Assembly: GCA_964615995.1 (NCBI GenBank)
Contig: CAZTSR010000003.1
Location: 64,327-128,326 of the forward strand
DNA length: 64,000 bases
From: an uncultured Bacteroidales bacterium
GTDB taxonomy: Bacteria > Bacteroidota > Bacteroidia > Bacteroidales > UBA10428
Direction: 5' to 3'
Position 1 is the stretch's first letter; each line of letters opens with the position of its first letter. Below, one piece after another: positions 1 to 10,705 of this stretch. The notes beneath the pieces were generated by a model, which saw only the letters and a list, made by a program, of their open reading frames with translations, was not told where the DNA came from and made no database searches. The translations under genes and the position numbers were made by a program.

Positions 1-620
1 GCTTTAATCTTTTTGTAGAAACCTCCGATACTCGAAACACTATAAGCCAACAGCCATGCAATGATTATAACCGGTAATCCTGTAATAAAAGCATATACCA
101 CAGGAAGGTATAAGCCTGAGGGGCTGGCTATTGAAATTGGAACTAACATTCCAAAATACAACATACCACTATAGGGACAGAAAGCAAGGGCAAAGACTAT
201 TCCCAACAATAATGCGCTTAAACTGCTTCCTTTTTTGGGAGATTCAGTCAGCATATCTGTGAGCTTGTTAAATGCAGGAAATTTGATTTTAAACAAATCG
301 AGCATAAAAATTCCTATCAGTATCAACAGGGGACCTAACAGACGTTCACCATATACCTGAAAGACTTTTGCCACATGAAATTTACTTGCTCCAAAATAAA
401 GTACAATTCCCAGGGCTGTATAACTCAATGCCCTGCCAAGAGTATAAACCAAACCATTAATGAAGATCTTCTGTTTGTTTTCAATATCCTTGCTTATAAA
501 TCCAATAGCCGTAATATTTGTAGCCAAAGGACATGGGCTTATTGCCGTCATAAATCCAAGAATTATGGCAGTAAAGAATGGTGTTCCGGTATTGTCCAGC
601 AAATGCTGCAAGTATTCCAT
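1..620 (-). CDS. CcdA/DsbD-family transmembrane thiol-disulfide protein (ArsG-like permease family); C-terminal part cut by window edge
   Basis: Not in the ORF track because it runs off the window. Manual reverse translation from ATG at 618-620 gives MEYLQHLLDNTGTPFFTAIILGFMTAISPCPLATN...LAFCPYSGMLYFG... and stays open to position 1. It is multi-TM with two Cys-Pro motifs typical of CcdA/DsbD cores. It starts 5 nt after the upstream gene stop. Confidence 0.75.
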   Translation of the reverse strand, partial: MEYLQHLLDNTGTPFFTAIILGFMTAISPCPLATNITAIGFISKDIENKQKIFINGLVYTLGRALSYTALGIVLYFGASKFHVAKVFQVYGERLLGPLLILIGIFMLDLFKIKFPAFNKLTDMLTESPKKGSSLSALLLGIVFALAFCPYSGMLYFGMLVPISIASPSGLYLPVVYAFITGLPVIIIAWLLAYSVSSIGGFYKKIK

Positions 621-3946: not shown

Positions 3947-6658
3947 ATGTTTTTATTTCCAGTTACTTTAAAAAAAGTCCAAAAATGGGCTTCCAAAGGT
4001 AAATATGATTTGTTAATTGAAGTCCTTGGTGACCCCAAGTGTAAAACTGACATAAAAATCGAAACCATTCATCTACTTGGCAAAAAGAAAGTAACAAAAG
4101 CCATTCCTGTTTTAACCGCCTTGATTCATGAGTTGCCTCTTAGAAAATCATTAATTGCCTGTTATGGAAATTTAAGGGACACCAGGATATATGATACGTT
4201 AATTAATCTGCTCCATCACGACAAAGAAAACATACCTGAAATTGTTCGTGATTTAGAGAATATCCATTATCCCGATGCAATACCCGTCCTGTTAAAGATG
4301 GTTGCCAGTGGTTCAGCAGATGATGCTATCCTTCATTCGATTAAGGTAATAGCCGACAAAAATGAAAGCTACGATGACATACTGAAAAGTTTCACTCCGG
4401 ATCAAACAGAATCCTGCTTAATTTTGCTTTGCAAAATATTGGCCGGTAATGATAAAAAAGAAATACAGACCAAACTCAATGCGTATATTTTTACAGAAAA
4501 TGCGCTGTTCAGGAAAGAAATAGGTCTTGCAAAAAAAACCAAAAAAGAAAATCAATGGGCTGACTGGCTGAAAGGTGATGCCGACGATTTCCGGCGACTG
4601 GCTGCTTCAGATGAGGAATATGTTTATGATATGCTCATGGATCAATATGAAAAAGGCCATAAAATTTTGGATCCATATCAGGATGTTTTTGCAAACCATA
4701 TTATAAGGATGGCTGATGCTGCATTCAGAGAAAGAGCGCTTTGTTTTATTGAAAAGCATAAGCTGGTTAGGGCGGCTGCAGAACTGGTGAATCATATCAG
4801 TAATTATGATGGCCAAATTCGGTTGAGAATAGCTAAAACACTGTCTGCTTTAGATATTCATGATTATAACGACGTGATAAAAGGAGATACACAGGATTTT
4901 ATACGTTTATTCGATCATAATCCCAGGGAAGGCGGAAATTTACTTAAGGAAATGGTGACGCACACATTTCCGCTTACCAAGGAAGAGCTGCAAATCTTAG
5001 CTGAAATTATTTCCGATTTAGGGAAGTCAAATAAACCAGAAGCTGTTGATGTTTTAGTTGCCGGTGTCAATGAAACATCATCAATAGGAGAAAAATGCTT
5101 TGACGCTATTCAGCAAGCCGGCAATGAAAGATTTGATGCAATTCTTTCCGGTATGTTGATCTCTTATAAAGACAAAACACGGATAAAAGCAGCAAAAAAG
5201 CTTGATCAGTTAGGAGATCATCGATGGGTGGATATTGTAAAGGGTGATGACAATGATATTGAACGCCTCTGTCTAGCTGGTTGTAAAGCTGCAATCGACA
5301 AAGAAATTATTTGCCTTGGAATGGACAGATATATTCGCGAAAAAGCAGCCCATATATTGTTGAAGGTATTGAAGAACAATCCCCAGGATGTTCTGAACTG
5401 GTCAGATATCGGGAAATCGATAACAACGCCTCATAAGGATGTACATGAAGACAATCATTCAGATCATGAAAGGACATCGGATTGCCATAGTGATAACGAA
5501 GGCCGTTCCATACATGAGGATTTGGGTTTTAACCTGACTTTTAATAATGAACAGCTTAAGTTTTTCAATGAGGTCGATTACGCTGACAGACGCAAGAAGA
5601 ATACCATTTCTGAAGAATATCTCATCGAGATGTTTGAGTCAAATCAGGATTCTTTAAGAGAGGATATGTTTGAAGATGCCAGACAGTTCTCCTCGGAAAA
5701 GCTGATTGAAGTAATAGGCAGGCTGGTTGAAAAAGAGGGTAAATATTCAAAAAAAGCATTTGAATATCTTTTGCTGCATAAGGTTGCCGCTTTACCGTAT
5801 TTTATAAAATCATTGTTATCCTATAGAGATGAAGACATCATCAGGGAAATTATTGCTGCCGGAGCACAGTCTTATAAGCTTCTTATTGATTTGTTATCTG
5901 AAAGCAAAAAAGTTCAATATGTAATTGAAGTGTTGGGGTTACTTGGCAATAAGCAGGCCATTGATCATATATTTCCTTATTTAACTTTCCGCGATGATAA
6001 AGCAGTCAGAATGAGTTCTGCAGGTGCTATGATCCATCTGGGTGAAACAGATTGGAAAGATATAATATTTGGAGATGATGATGATTTTGAGCGACTTGTA
6101 TTGAAGTGCGATGTCAGGTTGCTGAGTTGGTATAAAACCTCTTTTGTTGACATTCAATTTAGTTATCTTAAGGTACTTCTTGCCAAAACTTTAGCCCGGT
6201 TGGGTGAGAAGGAATTAGCAGGAGAAGTCAGAGAGCTGTTGATATCACCAAATCATAACGTTACAGATGTTGCCGGGGCCCTGGCCATGATTGACAGTAC
6301 CGACTGGAGTAAAGTAATCCTGGGCAACGAATCGGATTTTAAACGAATTGCCGGGGTTTGTAATATAGATGCTGTTAAAGTTTTGCTTGTCTTTTTAAAA
6401 GCCGCTGAAAGGGGAACCAGGGCAGCTGCAGCAGAAAGTCTGATCTCTATCGCAAAAGTCAATTTTTCTGTTGTTCAGGATGAATGGAAATCTATAACAG
6501 CCACTATCGCTCAGAAACACGAGGACAGCAGCAAACATGTGAGTCACTGGGCCGAAACACGATCGGGTGATTGTCATTCCGATTATATTTCACATACAGA
6601 TACCGGACTGGGTTTGACAATCTCAGATGATTTAGATTTGCGGGCTGATGACAAATAA
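3947..6658 (+). CDS. large HEAT (PBS-lyase-like) repeat protein, internally duplicated, each half ending in a His/Asp/Cys-rich DCHSD module
   Basis: Track ORF is 3860..6658 (932 aa). The ATG at 3947 (MFLFPVTLKK) is preferred because the first 29 codons are low-complexity and promoter-like. HEAT-like repeats are present (KAIPVLTALIHELP, DAIPVLLKMV, LGNKQAIDHIFPYL). The ORF overlaps the downstream rSAM gene by 11 nt. Confidence 0.8.
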   Translation: MFLFPVTLKKVQKWASKGKYDLLIEVLGDPKCKTDIKIETIHLLGKKKVTKAIPVLTALIHELPLRKSLIACYGNLRDTRIYDTLINLLHHDKENIPEIVRDLENIHYPDAIPVLLKMVASGSADDAILHSIKVIADKNESYDDILKSFTPDQTESCLILLCKILAGNDKKEIQTKLNAYIFTENALFRKEIGLAKKTKKENQWADWLKGDADDFRRLAASDEEYVYDMLMDQYEKGHKILDPYQDVFANHIIRMADAAFRERALCFIEKHKLVRAAAELVNHISNYDGQIRLRIAKTLSALDIHDYNDVIKGDTQDFIRLFDHNPREGGNLLKEMVTHTFPLTKEELQILAEIISDLGKSNKPEAVDVLVAGVNETSSIGEKCFDAIQQAGNERFDAILSGMLISYKDKTRIKAAKKLDQLGDHRWVDIVKGDDNDIERLCLAGCKAAIDKEIICLGMDRYIREKAAHILLKVLKNNPQDVLNWSDIGKSITTPHKDVHEDNHSDHERTSDCHSDNEGRSIHEDLGFNLTFNNEQLKFFNEVDYADRRKKNTISEEYLIEMFESNQDSLREDMFEDARQFSSEKLIEVIGRLVEKEGKYSKKAFEYLLLHKVAALPYFIKSLLSYRDEDIIREIIAAGAQSYKLLIDLLSESKKVQYVIEVLGLLGNKQAIDHIFPYLTFRDDKAVRMSSAGAMIHLGETDWKDIIFGDDDDFERLVLKCDVRLLSWYKTSFVDIQFSYLKVLLAKTLARLGEKELAGEVRELLISPNHNVTDVAGALAMIDSTDWSKVILGNESDFKRIAGVCNIDAVKVLLVFLKAAERGTRAAAAESLISIAKVNFSVVQDEWKSITATIAQKHEDSSKHVSHWAETRSGDCHSDYISHTDTGLGLTISDDLDLRADDK

Positions 6659-9011
6659 CCTGATTTCCTGTTCGGCCCGTATTCATAGTAATCCTCATTT
6701 TATGGTGATTCCCAGTAATGCATGCAATGCTTCATGCCATTATTGCTTTGGACCCAACAAAGGAAGAATTATCAATGAAGAGCAATTCAGTGAAAATATC
6801 AGTTTTATTGAAAAGGTCGTTCAAACTACACAACAAACCAAGGTACACATAACATTCCATGGAGGTGAGCCGCTGATGGCTCCGCTGAATATTTGGAAGA
6901 GCGGATTAAAATTAATCGACCGGACTTTCAAAACCCAAAAGCTTAAGCTTCAAATCCAGAGTAATTTATGGAACCTAACCCAGGAACATTGTGCTTTATT
7001 CAGAGATTACGGTATTTCATTCAGCACCAGTCTGGATGGACCTGAGGAAATAAATGATCTACATCGTGGGAAGGGCTATTTTTCCAAAACGATGAACGGT
7101 GTTGATCTTTTGCGGAAAAACAATATGAAGGTCGGGTCAATTGCCACTTTCTCTCCAAAAAACATGGACAAGATAAATGAAATCTTTACTTTTTTCGTCA
7201 GACAAAGGCTTTCATTTGCTGTACATGCTTCATTGCCACCGCTTACCGGTAAGGCAAATTCTTTTGTTTTGAGCCCTCAACAATATGGAACATTGTTATG
7301 TGACCTGTTCGATTTGTATGTGCCCAACCGCAAGTATATCAGTATTTCATCCTTTGATCAGCTTTGCCAATCAATCACGGATAACAGGGGCAAAGTATGC
7401 ACATTCAAGGACTGTACAGGCTCTTTTCTGGCCATTGATCCGGAAGGAAATATATATCCCTGTCAGCGGTTTTCAGGGAACCCTGATTATTGCCTTGGAA
7501 ATGTAATTGATCCGGAGATAATCAGCCGCTTACAGAATAACCCTGTTACCAACAGCCTGGTTGCTCATCATAAACAAATAAAAATTGAATGTAAGGATTG
7601 CGATCATATGAACTATTGTAAGGGTGGGTGTTATTATAACAGCAAAGCATCAAAGGAAACCAAAGACCCTTATTGCGAATCGTATAAAATGATTTTTAAC
7701 AAAATCAGGAATAGGCTGATCGGAGAGATGAGTAGTCCTGATAATTTCCGGGAAATTGTGGATAAACCTTTTACCAGCAATGGGAATCCGCTGCTTCGGA
7801 AAGGTCCTGTTATTGAACTTACGCAAAAGCCGCATCCGGTGACAAAAGCGATCAATTCGGCAAAAATTATTTCAGTTGTTGCCTTATCGCGATCAGCTAC
7901 AATAGACGAGGCCCATCAATCATTGAAAGACCTGGGCATTGGCGTTGAAAAGTCATACCTTGAAAATCTGAAAGAGCAGTTCAGCAGGAACCATTTCAAA
8001 TTAAATAACTGTTACATTCATACGACCTTTAATTGTCAGTTAGCATGCACGCATTGCTATGCAAAAGCCGGAAATTCTTCCGGCGAATCCATGCGTATTT
8101 CCCAGATAGCTGACATTTTAATGCAGGTGAAGGAAAACAAATTCAGACAGGCCATAATTACCGGTGGTGAACCGCTGATCTGCGACAATCTGGATGGTTT
8201 TCTGAACCGGATGATTGAACTTCGCCTGCAAATTGAGCCTGTAATTATTGTGCTTAGGACGAATTTATCCATGCCATTGTCAGACGGATTACTAGCTAAA
8301 ATAGCCCGGGCATTTCATCAGATTGTTGTAAGTGTTGACGGAGACAAAGAATATCATGAAAAGCGGAGAGGAGAAGGAACATACTCCAAAGTAACTGAAA
8401 ACATTCAAAGATATCAGCAGGTTATTCAAAATGTAAATAAGCCTGCTGAGTTATCAATAGGTTGTGTAATGCCTGCTGATGACATTCATGGGGGACCAGG
8501 TCAGAGTGTCCGTGATTTTGCTTATGCCAAAAACATAAGAAGAGTGAGGTTTAAACCACTTTTGCCGATAGGGAGAGCTGCTGACACATACACTTCCCTG
8601 GTTTCTGAGGCTCTGGATAGTTATGTTGACAAGGAAGAAGCCTTAAAGTATCCGTTTAAGCCATTTAAAACCTGTGGTATTGGTTATAATGTATACATAG
8701 AGCCAAAAGGCCATGTTTTTCCCTGTTATGCGTTTCACAAACCTCATACCTATATTGGCAATGTATTTGAATCGGGCTTGAACGGGATAGTGATGAGCGA
8801 GGCATTCAGGACTTTATCCGAACATAATGTGGATACCAACTCAAAGTGCAAAAAATGCGGATTTCGCTATTTATGCGGAGGCGCATGCCGTGCCTGGGGC
8901 CGGAATTTTACGCAGTATGATCTGGATGCACCGCCTCCCGATTGTGAAGGTCTGTATAAAAAGGCCGAAGATATCTATACGGCTGCGCTGGACTATCTGA
9001 AGAGCAGGTAG
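6648..9011 (+). CDS. fused tandem radical SAM/SPASM-domain enzyme (two complete maturase modules)
   Basis: 787 aa. Module 1 has CNASCHYC (6723-6746) and SPASM motif CKDCDHMNYCKGGC (7590-7631). Module 2 has CQLACTHC (8034-8057) and SPASM motif CKKCGFRYLCGGAC (8847-8888). GGEPL motifs occur in both modules. Confidence 0.9.
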   Translation: MTNNLISCSARIHSNPHFMVIPSNACNASCHYCFGPNKGRIINEEQFSENISFIEKVVQTTQQTKVHITFHGGEPLMAPLNIWKSGLKLIDRTFKTQKLKLQIQSNLWNLTQEHCALFRDYGISFSTSLDGPEEINDLHRGKGYFSKTMNGVDLLRKNNMKVGSIATFSPKNMDKINEIFTFFVRQRLSFAVHASLPPLTGKANSFVLSPQQYGTLLCDLFDLYVPNRKYISISSFDQLCQSITDNRGKVCTFKDCTGSFLAIDPEGNIYPCQRFSGNPDYCLGNVIDPEIISRLQNNPVTNSLVAHHKQIKIECKDCDHMNYCKGGCYYNSKASKETKDPYCESYKMIFNKIRNRLIGEMSSPDNFREIVDKPFTSNGNPLLRKGPVIELTQKPHPVTKAINSAKIISVVALSRSATIDEAHQSLKDLGIGVEKSYLENLKEQFSRNHFKLNNCYIHTTFNCQLACTHCYAKAGNSSGESMRISQIADILMQVKENKFRQAIITGGEPLICDNLDGFLNRMIELRLQIEPVIIVLRTNLSMPLSDGLLAKIARAFHQIVVSVDGDKEYHEKRRGEGTYSKVTENIQRYQQVIQNVNKPAELSIGCVMPADDIHGGPGQSVRDFAYAKNIRRVRFKPLLPIGRAADTYTSLVSEALDSYVDKEEALKYPFKPFKTCGIGYNVYIEPKGHVFPCYAFHKPHTYIGNVFESGLNGIVMSEAFRTLSEHNVDTNSKCKKCGFRYLCGGACRAWGRNFTQYDLDAPPPDCEGLYKKAEDIYTAALDYLKSR

Positions 9012-9346
9012 TTTGCATTGAGTCCATATGATATTCCAAAGCATACATGAGCCGCCTAAGATCCCTTAGGGGCTTATTGTATGGCTCAGGCCCTGCGGCT
9101 ATGAGCTTAAGGAGCTCCCGCTCGCGTCTATCTATGTTTTCTTCTTTTTGTTATTCAGTCAATGGTTAGTATGGAGTTTCTTTTACAAGTACAGGAAAAA
9201 TAGTTCTGGAATTAAAATAAAAGATTGATTAAATTATACATGTTACATTCGATTTCAAAACTTTAATAGTCAAAATTCCTAACTCATATCGTAATAGTTG
9301 AGCTAAAATGAGGATATTTGCACTCTTTTTTTAGTTTTATGATTTT

Positions 9347-10705
9347 ATGGCAAGGAAAAGCAGTCCTCATAATTTAGGGACAGAAGGAGTTGGGAAATTG
9401 CTGTTACAGTATTCGGTTCCGGCAATAATTGCAACAGCAGCAGCCTCTCTATACAATATTATCGATCGAATTTTTATTGGGCAGGGAGTTGGTCCCCTGG
9501 CAATTTCAGGCCTCGCCCTTACATTCCCATTAATGAATATTACTGCAGCTTTTGGTGCTATGGTGGGAATTGGTGCAAGCGTTATGGTCTCCATCAGGCT
9601 GGGCGAACACGACAGAAAAGGCGCAACTATGATTCTTGGTAATGCTGTAATGTTGAATATTATACTCGGTATTGTTGTTGCTCTTGTTACCTTTATTTTT
9701 CTTGAACCTATTCTCTATACTCTAGGAGCAAGCAAGGATACCTTGCCTTATGCCAAAGAATTTATGCAGATTATTTTGGCAGGTAATGTTTTTGCTCATC
9801 TTTATCTTGGTATGAACAGTATAATGAGGGCGTCTGGATACCCTAATAAGGCAATGTCCACAACACTCATTACTGTAATAGTTAACCTTGCTCTGGCTCC
9901 GGTATTTATCTTTGTTTTTAAATGGGGCATTCGCGGAGCAGCATTGGCCACTGTTATTGCTCAATTGATTGGTACTGCATCAACAGTTATTCACTTTTCA
10001 AAAATTAATAGTTTCGTGCATTTTCTTCCTGGATACATGAGGTTGAAAAGGGCAATAATTCGGGATATCGTTTCAATTGGAATGTCGAACTTTTTCATTC
10101 TTATAAGTGGTAGCGCTGTATTTATAATAATGAACCTTAGTCTTAAGAAGTATGGTGGAGATTATGCAATTGGTGCTTTTGGAATCATTGGCAGTATTGC
10201 AAATCTGGTGGTTATGATAGTAATGGGATTTAACCAGGGAATGCAACCAATAGTAGGATATAATTTTGGCGCACGAAAAACACCTCGTGTTATAAAGGCT
10301 TTTAAACTGACTATTTTTGCTGCGACATGTGTTACCAGCTTTGCATTTTTGCTTGCAGAAATTTTCCCAAAACTCATTGCAACAGCCTTTAATAATAATA
10401 GCGAACTTATTAATTTGTCGGTCACAGGTATGAGGCTAAACCTTATGATGTTCCCTGTTGTTGGCTTTCAAATAGTAACATCAAGTTTCTTCCAATCAAT
10501 TGGTAAAGCAAAAATCTCTATTTTTCTTTCACTTACAAGACAGGTTTTGTTTCTTATCCCAGCAATCTTAATTCTTTCTCATTTCTTGGGATTGAAAGGT
10601 GTTTGGCTCGGTGGCCCTATTGCCGATTTTTCTTCATCCCTATTGACTTTATTGGTTCTTCAATGGCAAATAAGAAAATTACATAAGACAGTTAACTCCT
10701 TGTAA
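9347..10705 (+). CDS. MATE-family efflux transporter
   Basis: 452 aa, 12-TM-like. The N-terminus LLLQYSVPAIIATAAASLYNIIDRIFIGQGVG is typical of the MATE/NorM family. Confidence 0.9.
   Translation: MARKSSPHNLGTEGVGKLLLQYSVPAIIATAAASLYNIIDRIFIGQGVGPLAISGLALTFPLMNITAAFGAMVGIGASVMVSIRLGEHDRKGATMILGNAVMLNIILGIVVALVTFIFLEPILYTLGASKDTLPYAKEFMQIILAGNVFAHLYLGMNSIMRASGYPNKAMSTTLITVIVNLALAPVFIFVFKWGIRGAALATVIAQLIGTASTVIHFSKINSFVHFLPGYMRLKRAIIRDIVSIGMSNFFILISGSAVFIIMNLSLKKYGGDYAIGAFGIIGSIANLVVMIVMGFNQGMQPIVGYNFGARKTPRVIKAFKLTIFAATCVTSFAFLLAEIFPKLIATAFNNNSELINLSVTGMRLNLMMFPVVGFQIVTSSFFQSIGKAKISIFLSLTRQVLFLIPAILILSHFLGLKGVWLGGPIADFSSSLLTLLVLQWQIRKLHKTVNSL

Follow-up and report, generated by a model that had tools for sequence, protein, structure and literature searches.

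Why should a single bacterial polypeptide contain two complete radical-SAM/SPASM maturases, and what would such an enzyme act on? The gene that raises this question lies in a window of 64,000 nucleotides, the whole stretch of DNA analysed here, from an uncultured Bacteroidales bacterium. An earlier note on the same DNA had proposed that the gene fuses two intact modules through a cysteine-free linker. Table 1 lists the enzyme, its domains and the neighbouring features. The enzyme gene is preceded by a gene for a HEAT-repeat protein, and the 11 nt shared by the enzyme ATG and the stop of this partner (ATGACAAATAA) recur as an identical 11-nt overlap at the homologous locus L001. The PHFM stretch upstream of Met19 is conserved, and the start at 6648 is therefore preferred over the database gene call at 6702. 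The partner start, ATG 3947, was chosen by comparison with its L001 homologue. The hairpin downstream of the enzyme probably ends the two-gene unit, and a sigma-70 promoter scan returns 16 matches against 17.9 expected.

Table 1. Features of the double-maturase locus, in window coordinates.
Feature	Position	Strand	Details
HEAT-repeat partner, probable substrate	3947..6658	+	903 aa; HEAT_2 E 1.3e-18 (Pfam)
Internal tail module 1	5426..5542	+	residues 494-532, TPHKDVHEDNHSDHERTSDCHSDNEGRSIHEDLGFNLTF; also in L001, L007
C-terminal tail module 2	6512..6622	+	residues 856-892, QKHEDSSKHVSHWAETRSGDCHSDYISHTDTGLGLTI; fits family-wide tail pattern
Double radical-SAM/SPASM enzyme gene	6648..9011	+	787 aa, ATG to TAG, 0 internal stops
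N-module radical-SAM core	6696..7382	+	residues 17-245; TIGR04083 match
N-module CNASCHYC	6723-6746	+	residues 26-33
N-module GGEPL	6861-6875	+	residues 72-76
N-module SPASM domain	7398..7676	+	8 invariant Cys: 251, 256, 272, 315, 318, 324, 328, 343
Helical interdomain	7677..8009	+	residues 344-454; Cys-free, conserved
C-module radical-SAM core	8001..8642	+	residues 452-665
C-module CQLACTHC	8034-8057	+	residues 463-470
C-module GGEPL	8163-8177	+	residues 506-510
C-module SPASM domain	8673..8945	+	7 invariant Cys: 676, 693, 734, 737, 743, 747, 766
Terminator-like hairpin	9055..9070	+	just 3' of enzyme stop; weak, from consensus scan alone

Both modules are complete, as the earlier note had read them from the letters. 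Pfam matches two stretches each of Radical_SAM (PF04055, E 1.7e-34) and SPASM (PF13186, E 1.2e-15) in the 787-aa frame. Each module carries the CxxxCxxC, GGEP and SxD ribose motifs of the radical SAM superfamily together with the 7-8 cysteines of a SPASM domain in the arrangement C-x9-16-G-x4-C ... CxxCx5Cx3C ... C, and the twitch-like strings quoted for the two halves, VCTFKDCTGSFLAIDPEGNIYPC and FKTCGIGYNVYIEPKGHVFPC, are both found in the translation. Across 120 homologues, the 21 Fe-S cysteines show no variation where the position is occupied; among the homologues covering each position, the N-terminal triad is conserved in 96-97 of 97 and the remaining cysteines in 119-120 of 120. The invariant residues of the N-module include C26, C30, C33, G72-L76, S128, D130 and G131, and those of the C-module C463, C467, H469, C470, G506-L510, R537, N539, S562, D564 and G565, so GGEP, the SxDG ribose motif and the cluster ligands are retained in both. 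The two halves also evolve at equal rates (mean pairwise identity across homologues 49% for one and 51% for the other). They are co-inherited, with r = 0.80 against a maximum of 0.17 after shuffling. The invariant motifs, equal rates and co-inheritance together indicate that neither half is a decaying pseudo-domain, which agrees with the initial reading. An AF2 model of the whole enzyme has a pLDDT of 87 and a pTM of 0.82.

The two modules have different affinities. By score, the N-half is a member of TIGR04083 (373.4 bits over residues 17-363, cut-off 300), and full-length homologues bear this name at NCBI. The TIGR04083 model comprises 376 positions and describes a single-module protein, to which the present enzyme adds 430 residues in the form of the interdomain and the second module. 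Among characterised families, DynA gives the N-half its highest score (261.6 bits, below its cut-off of 450), followed by the anaerobic sulfatase maturase TIGR03942 (237.7 bits, cut-off 349), PapB (182 bits, cut-off 340), YhhB (157.6 bits, cut-off 445), HxsB (136.6 bits, cut-off 370) and GrrM (122.2 bits, cut-off 310), all of them falling short. In fold comparison, anSMEcpe matches with a TMt of 0.79-0.84, and ChlB is the second-best structural match with a TMt of 0.78. A sulfatase-maturase identity was rejected, since the TIGR03942 score lies under the cut-off and the neighbouring gene encodes a HEAT protein and no sulfatase, the substrate that such maturases recognise by a Cys/Ser-x-Pro/Ala-x-Arg motif. 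On its sequence, the N-module is a TIGR04083 member of anSME/DynA/ChlB-like type, with an 8-Cys SPASM domain predicted to be fully Cys-ligated.

The C-half contains the TIGR04085 SPASM domain (50.3 bits, cut-off 27). Its best NCBIfam match is StsB, which at 88.7 bits is far under the cut-off of 625, and DynA (73 bits), PapB (72.7 bits, cut-off 340) and SCIFF (63.2 bits, cut-off 425) score lower; the NirJ, AhbD and MftC models show weak similarity. Taken alone, the C-half reaches 57 bits with TIGR04083 and is not a member. CteB is its best PDB sequence match (51.6 bits), and comparison of its fold with anSME and CteB gives a TM of about 0.6. In NCBIfam profile comparison no curated family accommodates the C-module, and neither module attains the curated cut-off of any of the characterised families YhhB, DynA, PapB and StsB. 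As judged from its profile scores and cysteine pattern, the C-module is a separate lineage with a 7-Cys SPASM domain of AlbA/CteB type.

The segment between the modules had been described as a linker. It is indeed free of cysteine (0 Cys in residues 344-454), but it is not a mere spacer, as a conserved, folded helical domain is predicted. Helices are placed at residues 343-361, 364-372, 387-390, 397-415, 419-428 and 435-446, the pLDDT of the block is mostly 88-94 with dips to 70-73, and N366, G386 and P397 are invariant. Its pairwise identity follows that of the N-module (r = 0.84), and an NCBIfam search of the interdomain gives 0 matches. Neither family search nor predicted structure reveals an RRE-like peptide-binding domain within it, because the ~110 residues ahead of the C-module are all-helical, without β-strands. 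A Foldseek alignment to CteB spans the interdomain with a low TM of 0.59.

The halves are clearly diverged, as had been claimed: aligned pairwise over 314 columns, they share 20% identity (E 4e-10), and HMM scores put them in different SPASM groups. In a tree from which named anSME, DynA and PapB references were absent, the N-halves cluster with single-module TIGR04083 proteins in one clade and the C-halves cluster with StsB/MftC-like proteins. The choice between duplication and fusion of distinct lineages, which the earlier note had left to such an alignment and tree, is thereby narrowed. A recent internal duplication with N and C as sisters is ruled out (p-AU 0.0003), whereas an ancient one, with the C-module as a very diverged paralogue of the N-module, is compatible with the tree (p-AU 0.35).

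The fusion is genuine and ancient. The best 120 of 825 database matches are all of double-enzyme length, and 94 of them show both motif pairs; 24 of the remainder, about a fifth of the 120 gene calls examined, begin at an internal Met and hence miss the first cluster motif. Full-length homologues are found in 157 species genomes, and the 80 best loci cover at least 17 phyla of bacteria and archaea. Carriers include methanogens and Asgard archaea as well as the cultured Lamprocystis purpurea DSM 4197, Anaerolinea thermolimosa IMO-1 and Parabacteroides sp. PF5-9, and the system is frequent among anaerobes (gut Clostridia, Bacteroidales, methanogens, Asgard archaea). No convincing stand-alone C-module was found, with 22 short cluster representatives lying outside the search. 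P0245, a 446-aa protein consisting of the C-module alone, was rejected as a natural split form; it lies 76-129 nt from contig ends and is therefore a fragment. Single-module N-type enzymes do occur beside HEAT partners with His-x-Asp (HxD) tails at loci L088 and L092, so the C-module is dispensable in some lineages.

The HEAT-repeat partner is the recurrent companion of the double enzyme. A locus was counted as informative if it had at least 2.5 kb of sequence on each side. At 39 of 45 such loci, 1-4 same-strand neighbours carry HxD tails; a partner next to the enzyme is missing from five or six, three Anaerolinea genomes among them. Such tails are rare in the background of the window's own genome (7 of 2921 ORFs), and no ORF of this 3.9-Mb genome other than the partner has 3 HxD triads within the final 60 aa. 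HEAT-repeat proteins account for 9 of 10 diverse partners sampled, and the partner matches include HEAT_PBS, NblB and CpcE-like repeats. The family-wide tail pattern combines HxD triads with a single Cys and a G-hydrophobic-G-hydrophobic element, often with a GIGxxFP end. Across 82 tails there are on average 3.0 HxD triads (2-7 per tail, with just one in some), Asp occupies the +2 position of 75% of all His, and Cys is present in 76 and absent in 6. The 903-aa partner looks like two substrate units fused, with a tail at the end of each, and the C-terminal parts of its two halves share homology (E about 1e-7). PADLOC defence models return nothing beyond generic viperin-like similarity, and membership of a defence system was rejected on this ground.

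The conserved double fusion and the neighbouring HxD-tail HEAT proteins thus make it probable that the locus encodes a two-step system of protein maturation that is as yet uncharacterised. Taken as a whole, the reading towards which we lean is a fusion enzyme that performs two different radical steps on the tails of its HEAT partners. The HxD/Cys tails of the co-encoded proteins would be the substrate, and each module may contribute a radical step of its own kind to the modification of one tail. The earlier note had allowed for two chemistries or two target sites. Two chemistries are favoured because the SPASM domains hold 8 and 7 Cys and the tails offer two kinds of conserved residue. Two target sites, namely the two tails of the 903-aa partner, are not favoured because most loci combine a single-tail partner with the same double enzyme, and the assignment of one module to each tail was rejected for this reason.

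A possible course of the reaction can be outlined. Six [4Fe-4S] clusters are predicted per polypeptide, and SAM would be cleaved at two independent sites. The substrate at this locus would be the translationally coupled 903-aa protein with its two tails. Very tentatively, the N-module might act on the H-x-D triads by chemistry of the triceptide/dynobactin type, joining His to the Cβ of Asp in three-residue cross-links. In the C-module, auxiliary cluster I might have an iron site left open, at which the tail Cys binds and a thioether forms, a step that we propose with as little confidence. Such chemistry would leave the HEAT scaffold with a rigidified end-piece that probably binds metal. At two single-module loci with partners, the tail Cys is present in one and absent in the other (n=2 loci), and the Cys-bearing tail is a misfit with a strict rule that equates the C-module with Cys. 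In its most far-reaching form, which we regard as rather unlikely, the system would be pan-prokaryotic, from Bacteroidota to Asgard archaea, and two mechanistically different active sites of one six-cluster enzyme, working in turn to form His-to-Asp Cβ cyclophanes and then a Cys thioether, would produce a rigid metal- or cofactor-binding knot on the HEAT C-terminus.

Both modules might instead catalyse the same reaction, with the fusion doubling capacity or processivity for many triads or paralogous substrates. The repeated triads of each tail and the 1-4 partner genes per locus would suit such a role, as would an ancient common origin of the halves, but the low identity between them, their different HMM affinities and the 8 versus 7 invariant Cys of their SPASM domains speak against it. 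Moreover, multi-triad tails are already paired with single-module enzymes, so capacity alone needs no second module, and we consider a shared reaction improbable. It is also conceivable, if hardly probable, that a single module is catalytic and the other serves as an electron-transfer, docking or chaperone domain whose clusters are structural or redox-active. Since an RRE-type recognition domain was not found in the enzyme, one module could have assumed substrate binding, and the C-module has been lost in some lineages that retain the partner. Known pseudo-rSAM domains, however, usually lose the Cys triad, GGEP and SxDG motifs, all of which are invariant in both modules here, and the two evolve at equal rates.

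Similarly slim is the chance that the substrate is a small molecule or cofactor, such as a tetrapyrrole or a metal cofactor, for which the HEAT protein would be carrier or scaffold and the tail a ligand site. The PBS-lyase-like repeats of the partners, the weak NirJ, AhbD and MftC similarity of the C-half and a His/Asp/Cys composition suited to metal binding fit this idea. Yet the nearest relatives of the N-module (TIGR04083, DynA, anSME, PapB) all act on peptides or proteins, the strict H-x-D spacing is what one expects of a motif for recognition or cross-linking rather than of a loose metal site, and the neighbourhoods of the enzyme loci share no conserved genes for cofactor biosynthesis. 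Lastly, a sequencing or assembly error that joined two adjacent genes or missed a stop in the linker, a scenario under which the earlier note's reading would fail, is ruled out for practical purposes, as the fusion is unbroken in independent assemblies from 157 species, cultured strains included, its interdomain is conserved and confidently folded, and frameshifted copies (L060, L069, L080, L086 and also L094, mostly in long-read MAGs) split the gene, which is the opposite direction.

If the tails are modified in two steps, the closest analogue would be the HxsB/HxsC-HxsA system, in which HxsA, a protein with HxS repeats, is matured by the rSAM pair HxsB and HxsC (PMC13128918, PMC9062424). Both systems have two radical-SAM modules for one folded protein with repeated His-x-(small polar) triads. 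The HXS enzymes are separate whereas the present modules share one chain, the repeat is H-x-S there and H-x-D here, and the candidate substrate here is a cytoplasmic-looking HEAT protein without a peptidoglycan-binding domain. HxsC is absent from the top 25 profile matches of either half, and the HxsB score under its cut-off and the H-x-D repeat on a HEAT protein place the locus outside the HXS system. The single-module TIGR04083 proteins of methanogens ('Mhun_1560 family') are 375-390 aa long and 37-44% identical to the N-half, but they lack the interdomain and the C-module; no HxD-tail neighbour is present at the two methanogen loci of this kind that were checked, and a literature search found no experimental characterisation of the family.

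Triceptide synthases link an aromatic residue to the Cβ two positions on, in Ω1-X2-X3 motifs, and HaaB, YhhB and HtkB couple His-C2 to Cβ within H-x-x motifs (PMC11499958). The H-x-D triads here match the Ω1-X2-X3 pattern. The triceptide synthases (ChlB, HaaB, YhhB, HtkB) and DynA differ in acting on short leader-bearing peptides, and the present enzyme scores below their cut-offs. In CteB and AlbA, which have 7 Cys, a substrate Cys binds at the open Aux I site; anSME, by contrast, is fully ligated (PMC6231123). The C-module resembles the sactipeptide/ranthipeptide synthases (CteB, AlbA, StsB, PapB) in its 7-Cys SPASM pattern. It differs from them in its very low scores and in having no recognisable RRE, and the tails usually hold one Cys; by family score and N-terminal winged-helix RRE, the C-half falls outside this group. 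Action on whole proteins has precedent in QhpD and CrpC (PMC13692751). The joining of two radical-SAM sites in one chain has a precedent of its own. FbiC, the fused CofG+CofH F0 synthase, uses two such sites for consecutive steps on a small-molecule substrate. It is not known to have SPASM domains or auxiliary clusters, and its homology to the present enzyme is probably limited to the superfamily core. For FbiC, PMC11917521 mentions 'two radical SAM domains'. A literature search for the double radical-SAM/SPASM architecture found no paper on it.

SPASM maturases are a main source of new peptide chemistry, and those characterised are nearly all single-module enzymes with short-peptide substrates. 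Here, in contrast, two complete, non-identical modules under equal purifying selection accompany large HEAT partners with an HxD/Cys tail, and this association makes the locus a tractable two-gene system. Such a system could address the ordering of two radical reactions on one substrate, the occurrence of His-x-Asp cross-links on proteins and the role of modified HEAT proteins. For the family, the name TIGR04083 at NCBI covers two architectures, one with a single and one with a double module. If it does form, the metal- or cofactor-binding knot would count as a protein-derived prosthetic site of a new class rather than as a RiPP natural product.

The enzyme carries two radical-SAM/SPASM modules in one polypeptide, as the earlier note had described, and all the motifs it listed are present in the open reading frame. 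Pfam matches Radical_SAM (E 1.7e-34), SPASM (E 1.2e-15) and Fer4_12 in two places each. The halves, already noted as diverged, are 20% identical across 314 aligned columns (E 4e-10). In a 120-sequence alignment, the cysteines of the N-terminal triad are kept in 96-97 of the 97 homologues covering the position and all other Fe-S cysteines in 119-120 of 120, and the GGEP and SxDG SAM-binding motifs are invariant across homologues in the first (N-) and second (C-) module alike. In pairwise comparison of 96 full-length homologues, the N-modules are on average 49% identical and the C-modules 51%, and distances in one module track those in the other (matrix correlation r = 0.80; maximum 0.17 in 500 label shuffles); both modules are therefore equally constrained and co-inherited. 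By sequence conservation, then, neither module is a decaying pseudo-domain.

Features of the enzyme gene and its surroundings (window coordinates unless residues are stated)
Feature	Position	Strand	Details
Double radical-SAM/SPASM enzyme ORF	6648-9011	+	ATG to TAG, 787 aa
N-module motifs	CNASCHYC residues 26-33; GGEPL 72-76		
N-module SPASM cysteines	residues 251, 256, 272, 315, 318, 324, 328, 343		n = 8
C-module motifs	CQLACTHC residues 463-470; GGEPL 506-510		
C-module SPASM cysteines	residues 676, 693, 734, 737, 743, 747, 766		n = 7
HEAT-repeat partner gene	3947-6658	+	903 aa
Partner tail module 1 (internal)	residues 494-532		...HxDxHxDxHSDHERTSDCHSD...HEDLGFNLTF
Partner tail module 2	residues 856-892		...HED...SGDCHSD..HTDTGLGLTI
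GC-rich hairpin, terminator-like	region 9040-9130, stem 9055-9070		just past enzyme stop codon; consensus scan only

The two modules have different relatives. The N-half passes the NCBIfam model TIGR04083 (373 bits, cut-off 300), followed by DynA (262), anSME (238), PapB (182) and YhhB (158), and among solved structures it comes nearest to anSMEcpe (TMt 0.79-0.84) and to ChlB (0.78), a triceptide synthase. The C-half reaches no NCBIfam cut-off (best StsB 89, DynA 73, PapB 73, NirJ2 65, MftC 65) and scores only 57 bits against TIGR04083; its best PDB sequence match is CteB, and its fold resembles anSME and CteB at TM ~0.6. An exhaustive HMMER search with the C-half gave 114 cluster representatives at E ≤ 1e-30, mostly matching at residues ~440-790 in proteins of 700-850 aa, and past these come unnamed StsB/MftC-like SPASM proteins of ~420-480 aa. 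A maximum-likelihood tree puts the N-halves together with single-module TIGR04083 proteins on one side (support 100), and the C-halves form a clade of their own (support 100) amid the remaining SPASM proteins. Duplication or fusion had been posed as a question for pairwise alignment and phylogeny. A recent internal duplication is ruled out, as a tree constrained to make the N- and C-halves sisters is worse by 154 log-likelihood units (p-AU 0.0003). The simplest reading is that distinct SPASM lineages were fused. A viable, less simple account has the halves arising by an ancient duplication and then diverging strongly, since a constraint that unites C-halves, N-halves and single-module proteins to the exclusion of the other SPASM proteins was not rejected (p 0.35). 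For the favoured fusion of lineages, groupings common to the N and C subtrees (e.g. window+P0002, P0055+P0063+P0112 and P0050+P0087, by homologue number) are consistent with a single old event.

An assembly error joining two genes, a refutation envisaged in the earlier note, is excluded by the uninterrupted fusion across independent genomes of many phyla. A word-indexed search returned 825 relatives; among the best 120, every protein has the length of a double enzyme (726-1103 aa). The pair of CxxxCxxC and the pair of CxxCx5Cx3C motifs are complete in 94 of these 120; 24 of the rest, seemingly without the first triad (e.g. P0022, P0044, P0052), are gene calls from an internal Met ~12 residues past the first CxxxCxxC. 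Such starts are systematic annotation errors for the family that wrongly drop the N-module cluster motif, not degenerate enzymes. The database call of the window enzyme (P0001, 769 aa) likewise starts at Met19 (window 6702); we favour the ATG at 6648 because PHFM is conserved upstream of Met19 and the 11-nt overlap with the partner stop is conserved. In a pattern scan with each species represented by one genome, 157 species encoded a relative, and nearly all of the best 80 of these loci match enzyme residues ~15-785 within one frame. These 80 span at least 17 phyla: Bacillota (19), Chloroflexota (19), Bacteroidota (6), Planctomycetota (6), Thermodesulfobacteriota, Acidobacteriota, Pseudomonadota, Verrucomicrobiota, Chlorobiota, Methanobacteriota, Thermoplasmatota, Promethearchaeota and more. 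Cultured carriers include Lamprocystis purpurea DSM 4197, Anaerolinea thermolimosa IMO-1 and Parabacteroides sp. PF5-9. The distribution is patchy, since in the window's own phylum the enzyme is rare: one of 301 sampled genomes has it, that one being the window's own. Frameshifts split the double-enzyme copies at five loci (L080, L060, L069, L086, L094), mostly from long-read or MFD MAGs; these copies probably reflect indel errors or pseudogenes and not a naturally split form.

The sequence between the modules (residues 344-454) is Cys-free, as first described, but is not a mere linker. N366, G386 and P397 are invariant and many positions are >90% conserved in the homologue alignment. An AlphaFold2 prediction of the whole chain (40-sequence alignment; pLDDT 87.2, pTM 0.82) gives this block five to six helices and no β-strands, with pLDDT mostly 88-94 and dips to 70-73. 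On this model it is a folded domain, and the high pTM suggests that the two modules are held in a defined mutual arrangement. Since it also matches no NCBIfam model, it does not look like a canonical winged-helix RRE.

The enzyme gene start overlaps the stop of the HEAT-repeat partner gene by 11 nt (ATGACAAATAA), and the overlap is identical in homologous locus L001 (67% identical). Because its tail modules are near-identical and its halves homologous, the partner is two putative substrate units fused, joined head to tail (532 + 371 aa) such that the first His-x-Asp/Cys (HxD) tail is internal; elsewhere units are encoded as separate genes (e.g. 396 aa and 543 aa in L012). Ends with two or more HxD triads in their final 60 residues are few in the 3.9-Mb genome that the window comes from (only 7 of 2921 ORFs), and among these seven the partner alone has three triads and alone has the tail motifs. 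A W-x-D-(I/V)-(I/V)-x-G-D-x-x-D-F-x-R-L motif is repeated between its HEAT arrays (window 4555-6350); it can also be seen in the Lamprocystis and L092 partners (WMQWVRGDDQDIERI, WQQVVRGEKHDIDSL), and may be a family signature of these putative substrates. Downstream of the enzyme, the next gene (9347-10705) resembles a multi-pass membrane transporter and is not kept in related loci.

Of the best 80 loci, 45 have 2.5 kb or more of sequence to each side; in 39 of these 45, one to four neighbour genes on the same strand encode an HxD tail, defined over the final 60 residues as two or more HxD triads or as a single triad together with a G-hydrophobic-G-hydrophobic motif. Such genes lie upstream at 18 loci and downstream at 24. 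The 82 tails average 3.0 triads, and 75% of their His have Asp at +2, against 11% Asp in composition, a figure biased upward because tails were chosen for ≥2 triads. Cys occurs in 76 of the 82 yet makes up only 2.1% of residues, hence typically one per tail; [S/G/N]-D-C is present in 39, and many tails finish in GIG(L/V)xFP or FPP. Nine of 10 partners sampled from Bacteroidota, Chlorobiota, Acidobacteriota, Methanospirillum, Clostridia, Anaerolineae, Asgard archaea and Desulfovibrionaceae are HEAT-repeat proteins. From this strong neighbourhood evidence, the tails of the HxD-tail HEAT proteins are quite probably the substrate of the enzyme. Five or six informative loci have no adjacent HxD-tail partner, three Anaerolinea genomes among them (L045, L067, L085), where no gene less than 5 kb from the double enzyme encodes an HxD tail; the Anaerolinea substrate may be encoded elsewhere in the genome or be different.

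Methanogen TIGR04083 proteins (~380 aa) are 37-39% identical to the N-half and form a sister clade; the two examined have no HxD-tail neighbour. A second single-module clade, TIGR04083-like and also sister to the N-halves, consists of P0139 (L095:1-3953) and P0156 (L091:2765-7248), whose genes lie directly downstream of a 786-790-aa gene and are followed by DprA and topoisomerase I. In L091 that upstream gene encodes a PFL-like glycyl-radical enzyme, accompanied by its activase; in L095 it has no Pfam record. P0156 keeps the first part of the interdomain sequence, then terminates, and single-module P0143 is located amid corrinoid methyltransferase genes. Single-module P0125 (L088:2361-7164) and P0136 (L092:6001-7866) are nested inside the N-half clade, adjacent to HEAT/HxD-tail partners of 1202 aa (tail ...HTD..HSD...HHSDCGDPHIDVGIGIEIP) and 201 aa (tail ...HHSDTAGGGRHSDVGVGVEFPP, Cys-free), so that one tail of the two has a Cys. 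The C-module has apparently been lost secondarily in both enzymes. Because P0125 and P0136 have such partners, the N-type module is the core partner of HxD tails and the C-module is losable.

NCBI already names these proteins 'TIGR04083 family peptide-modifying radical SAM enzyme', so the sequences were known; the model spans the N-half only, and we found no paper on the family, the double architecture or HEAT/HxD partners. Curated scores fail for membership in the HXS, anSME, DynA, triceptide and sactipeptide families, and PADLOC gave nothing specific for the enzyme. Its sequence and neighbourhood point to a fused hetero-double radical-SAM/SPASM maturase for HEAT-repeat proteins. Its nearest counterpart in function is the HXS system, with two separate radical-SAM enzymes and an HxS-repeat protein, whereas here the modules are fused and the tails are HxD. 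What is reported of HXS chemistry is limited to a +8 Da change on SHRSS (PMC13128918).

Two kinds of conserved tail residue, H-x-D triads and a single Cys, could be matched with the two kinds of module. With its eight invariant SPASM cysteines, the N-module follows the pattern of anSME, which is fully ligated. DynA and ChlB, both cross-linkers of Ω1-X2-X3 motifs, are among its closest characterised relatives, and HaaB, YhhB and HtkB are known to join His-C2 to Cβ on H-x-x motifs (PMC11499958); on these grounds the N-module might form His-to-Asp Cβ cross-links. The seven invariant cysteines of the C-module follow the AlbA/CteB pattern, in which Aux I has an open iron site able to bind a substrate Cys, anSME being fully ligated (PMC6231123), and the C-module might for this reason form a thioether from the tail Cys. 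We lean towards the two modules carrying out different steps; this particular pair of chemistries, drawn by analogy, is a tentative proposal that may well be wrong in detail. Of the two options in the earlier note, different chemistries are thus favoured, on the same tail, and one module per tail of the two-tail partner is not supported because the double enzyme is the same with single-tail partners elsewhere. Precedents for modification of whole proteins are QhpD and CrpC (PMC13692751) and HxsB/HxsC acting on HxsA (PMC13128918). If both tails of the partner are modified, a free C-terminus would be unnecessary for modification.
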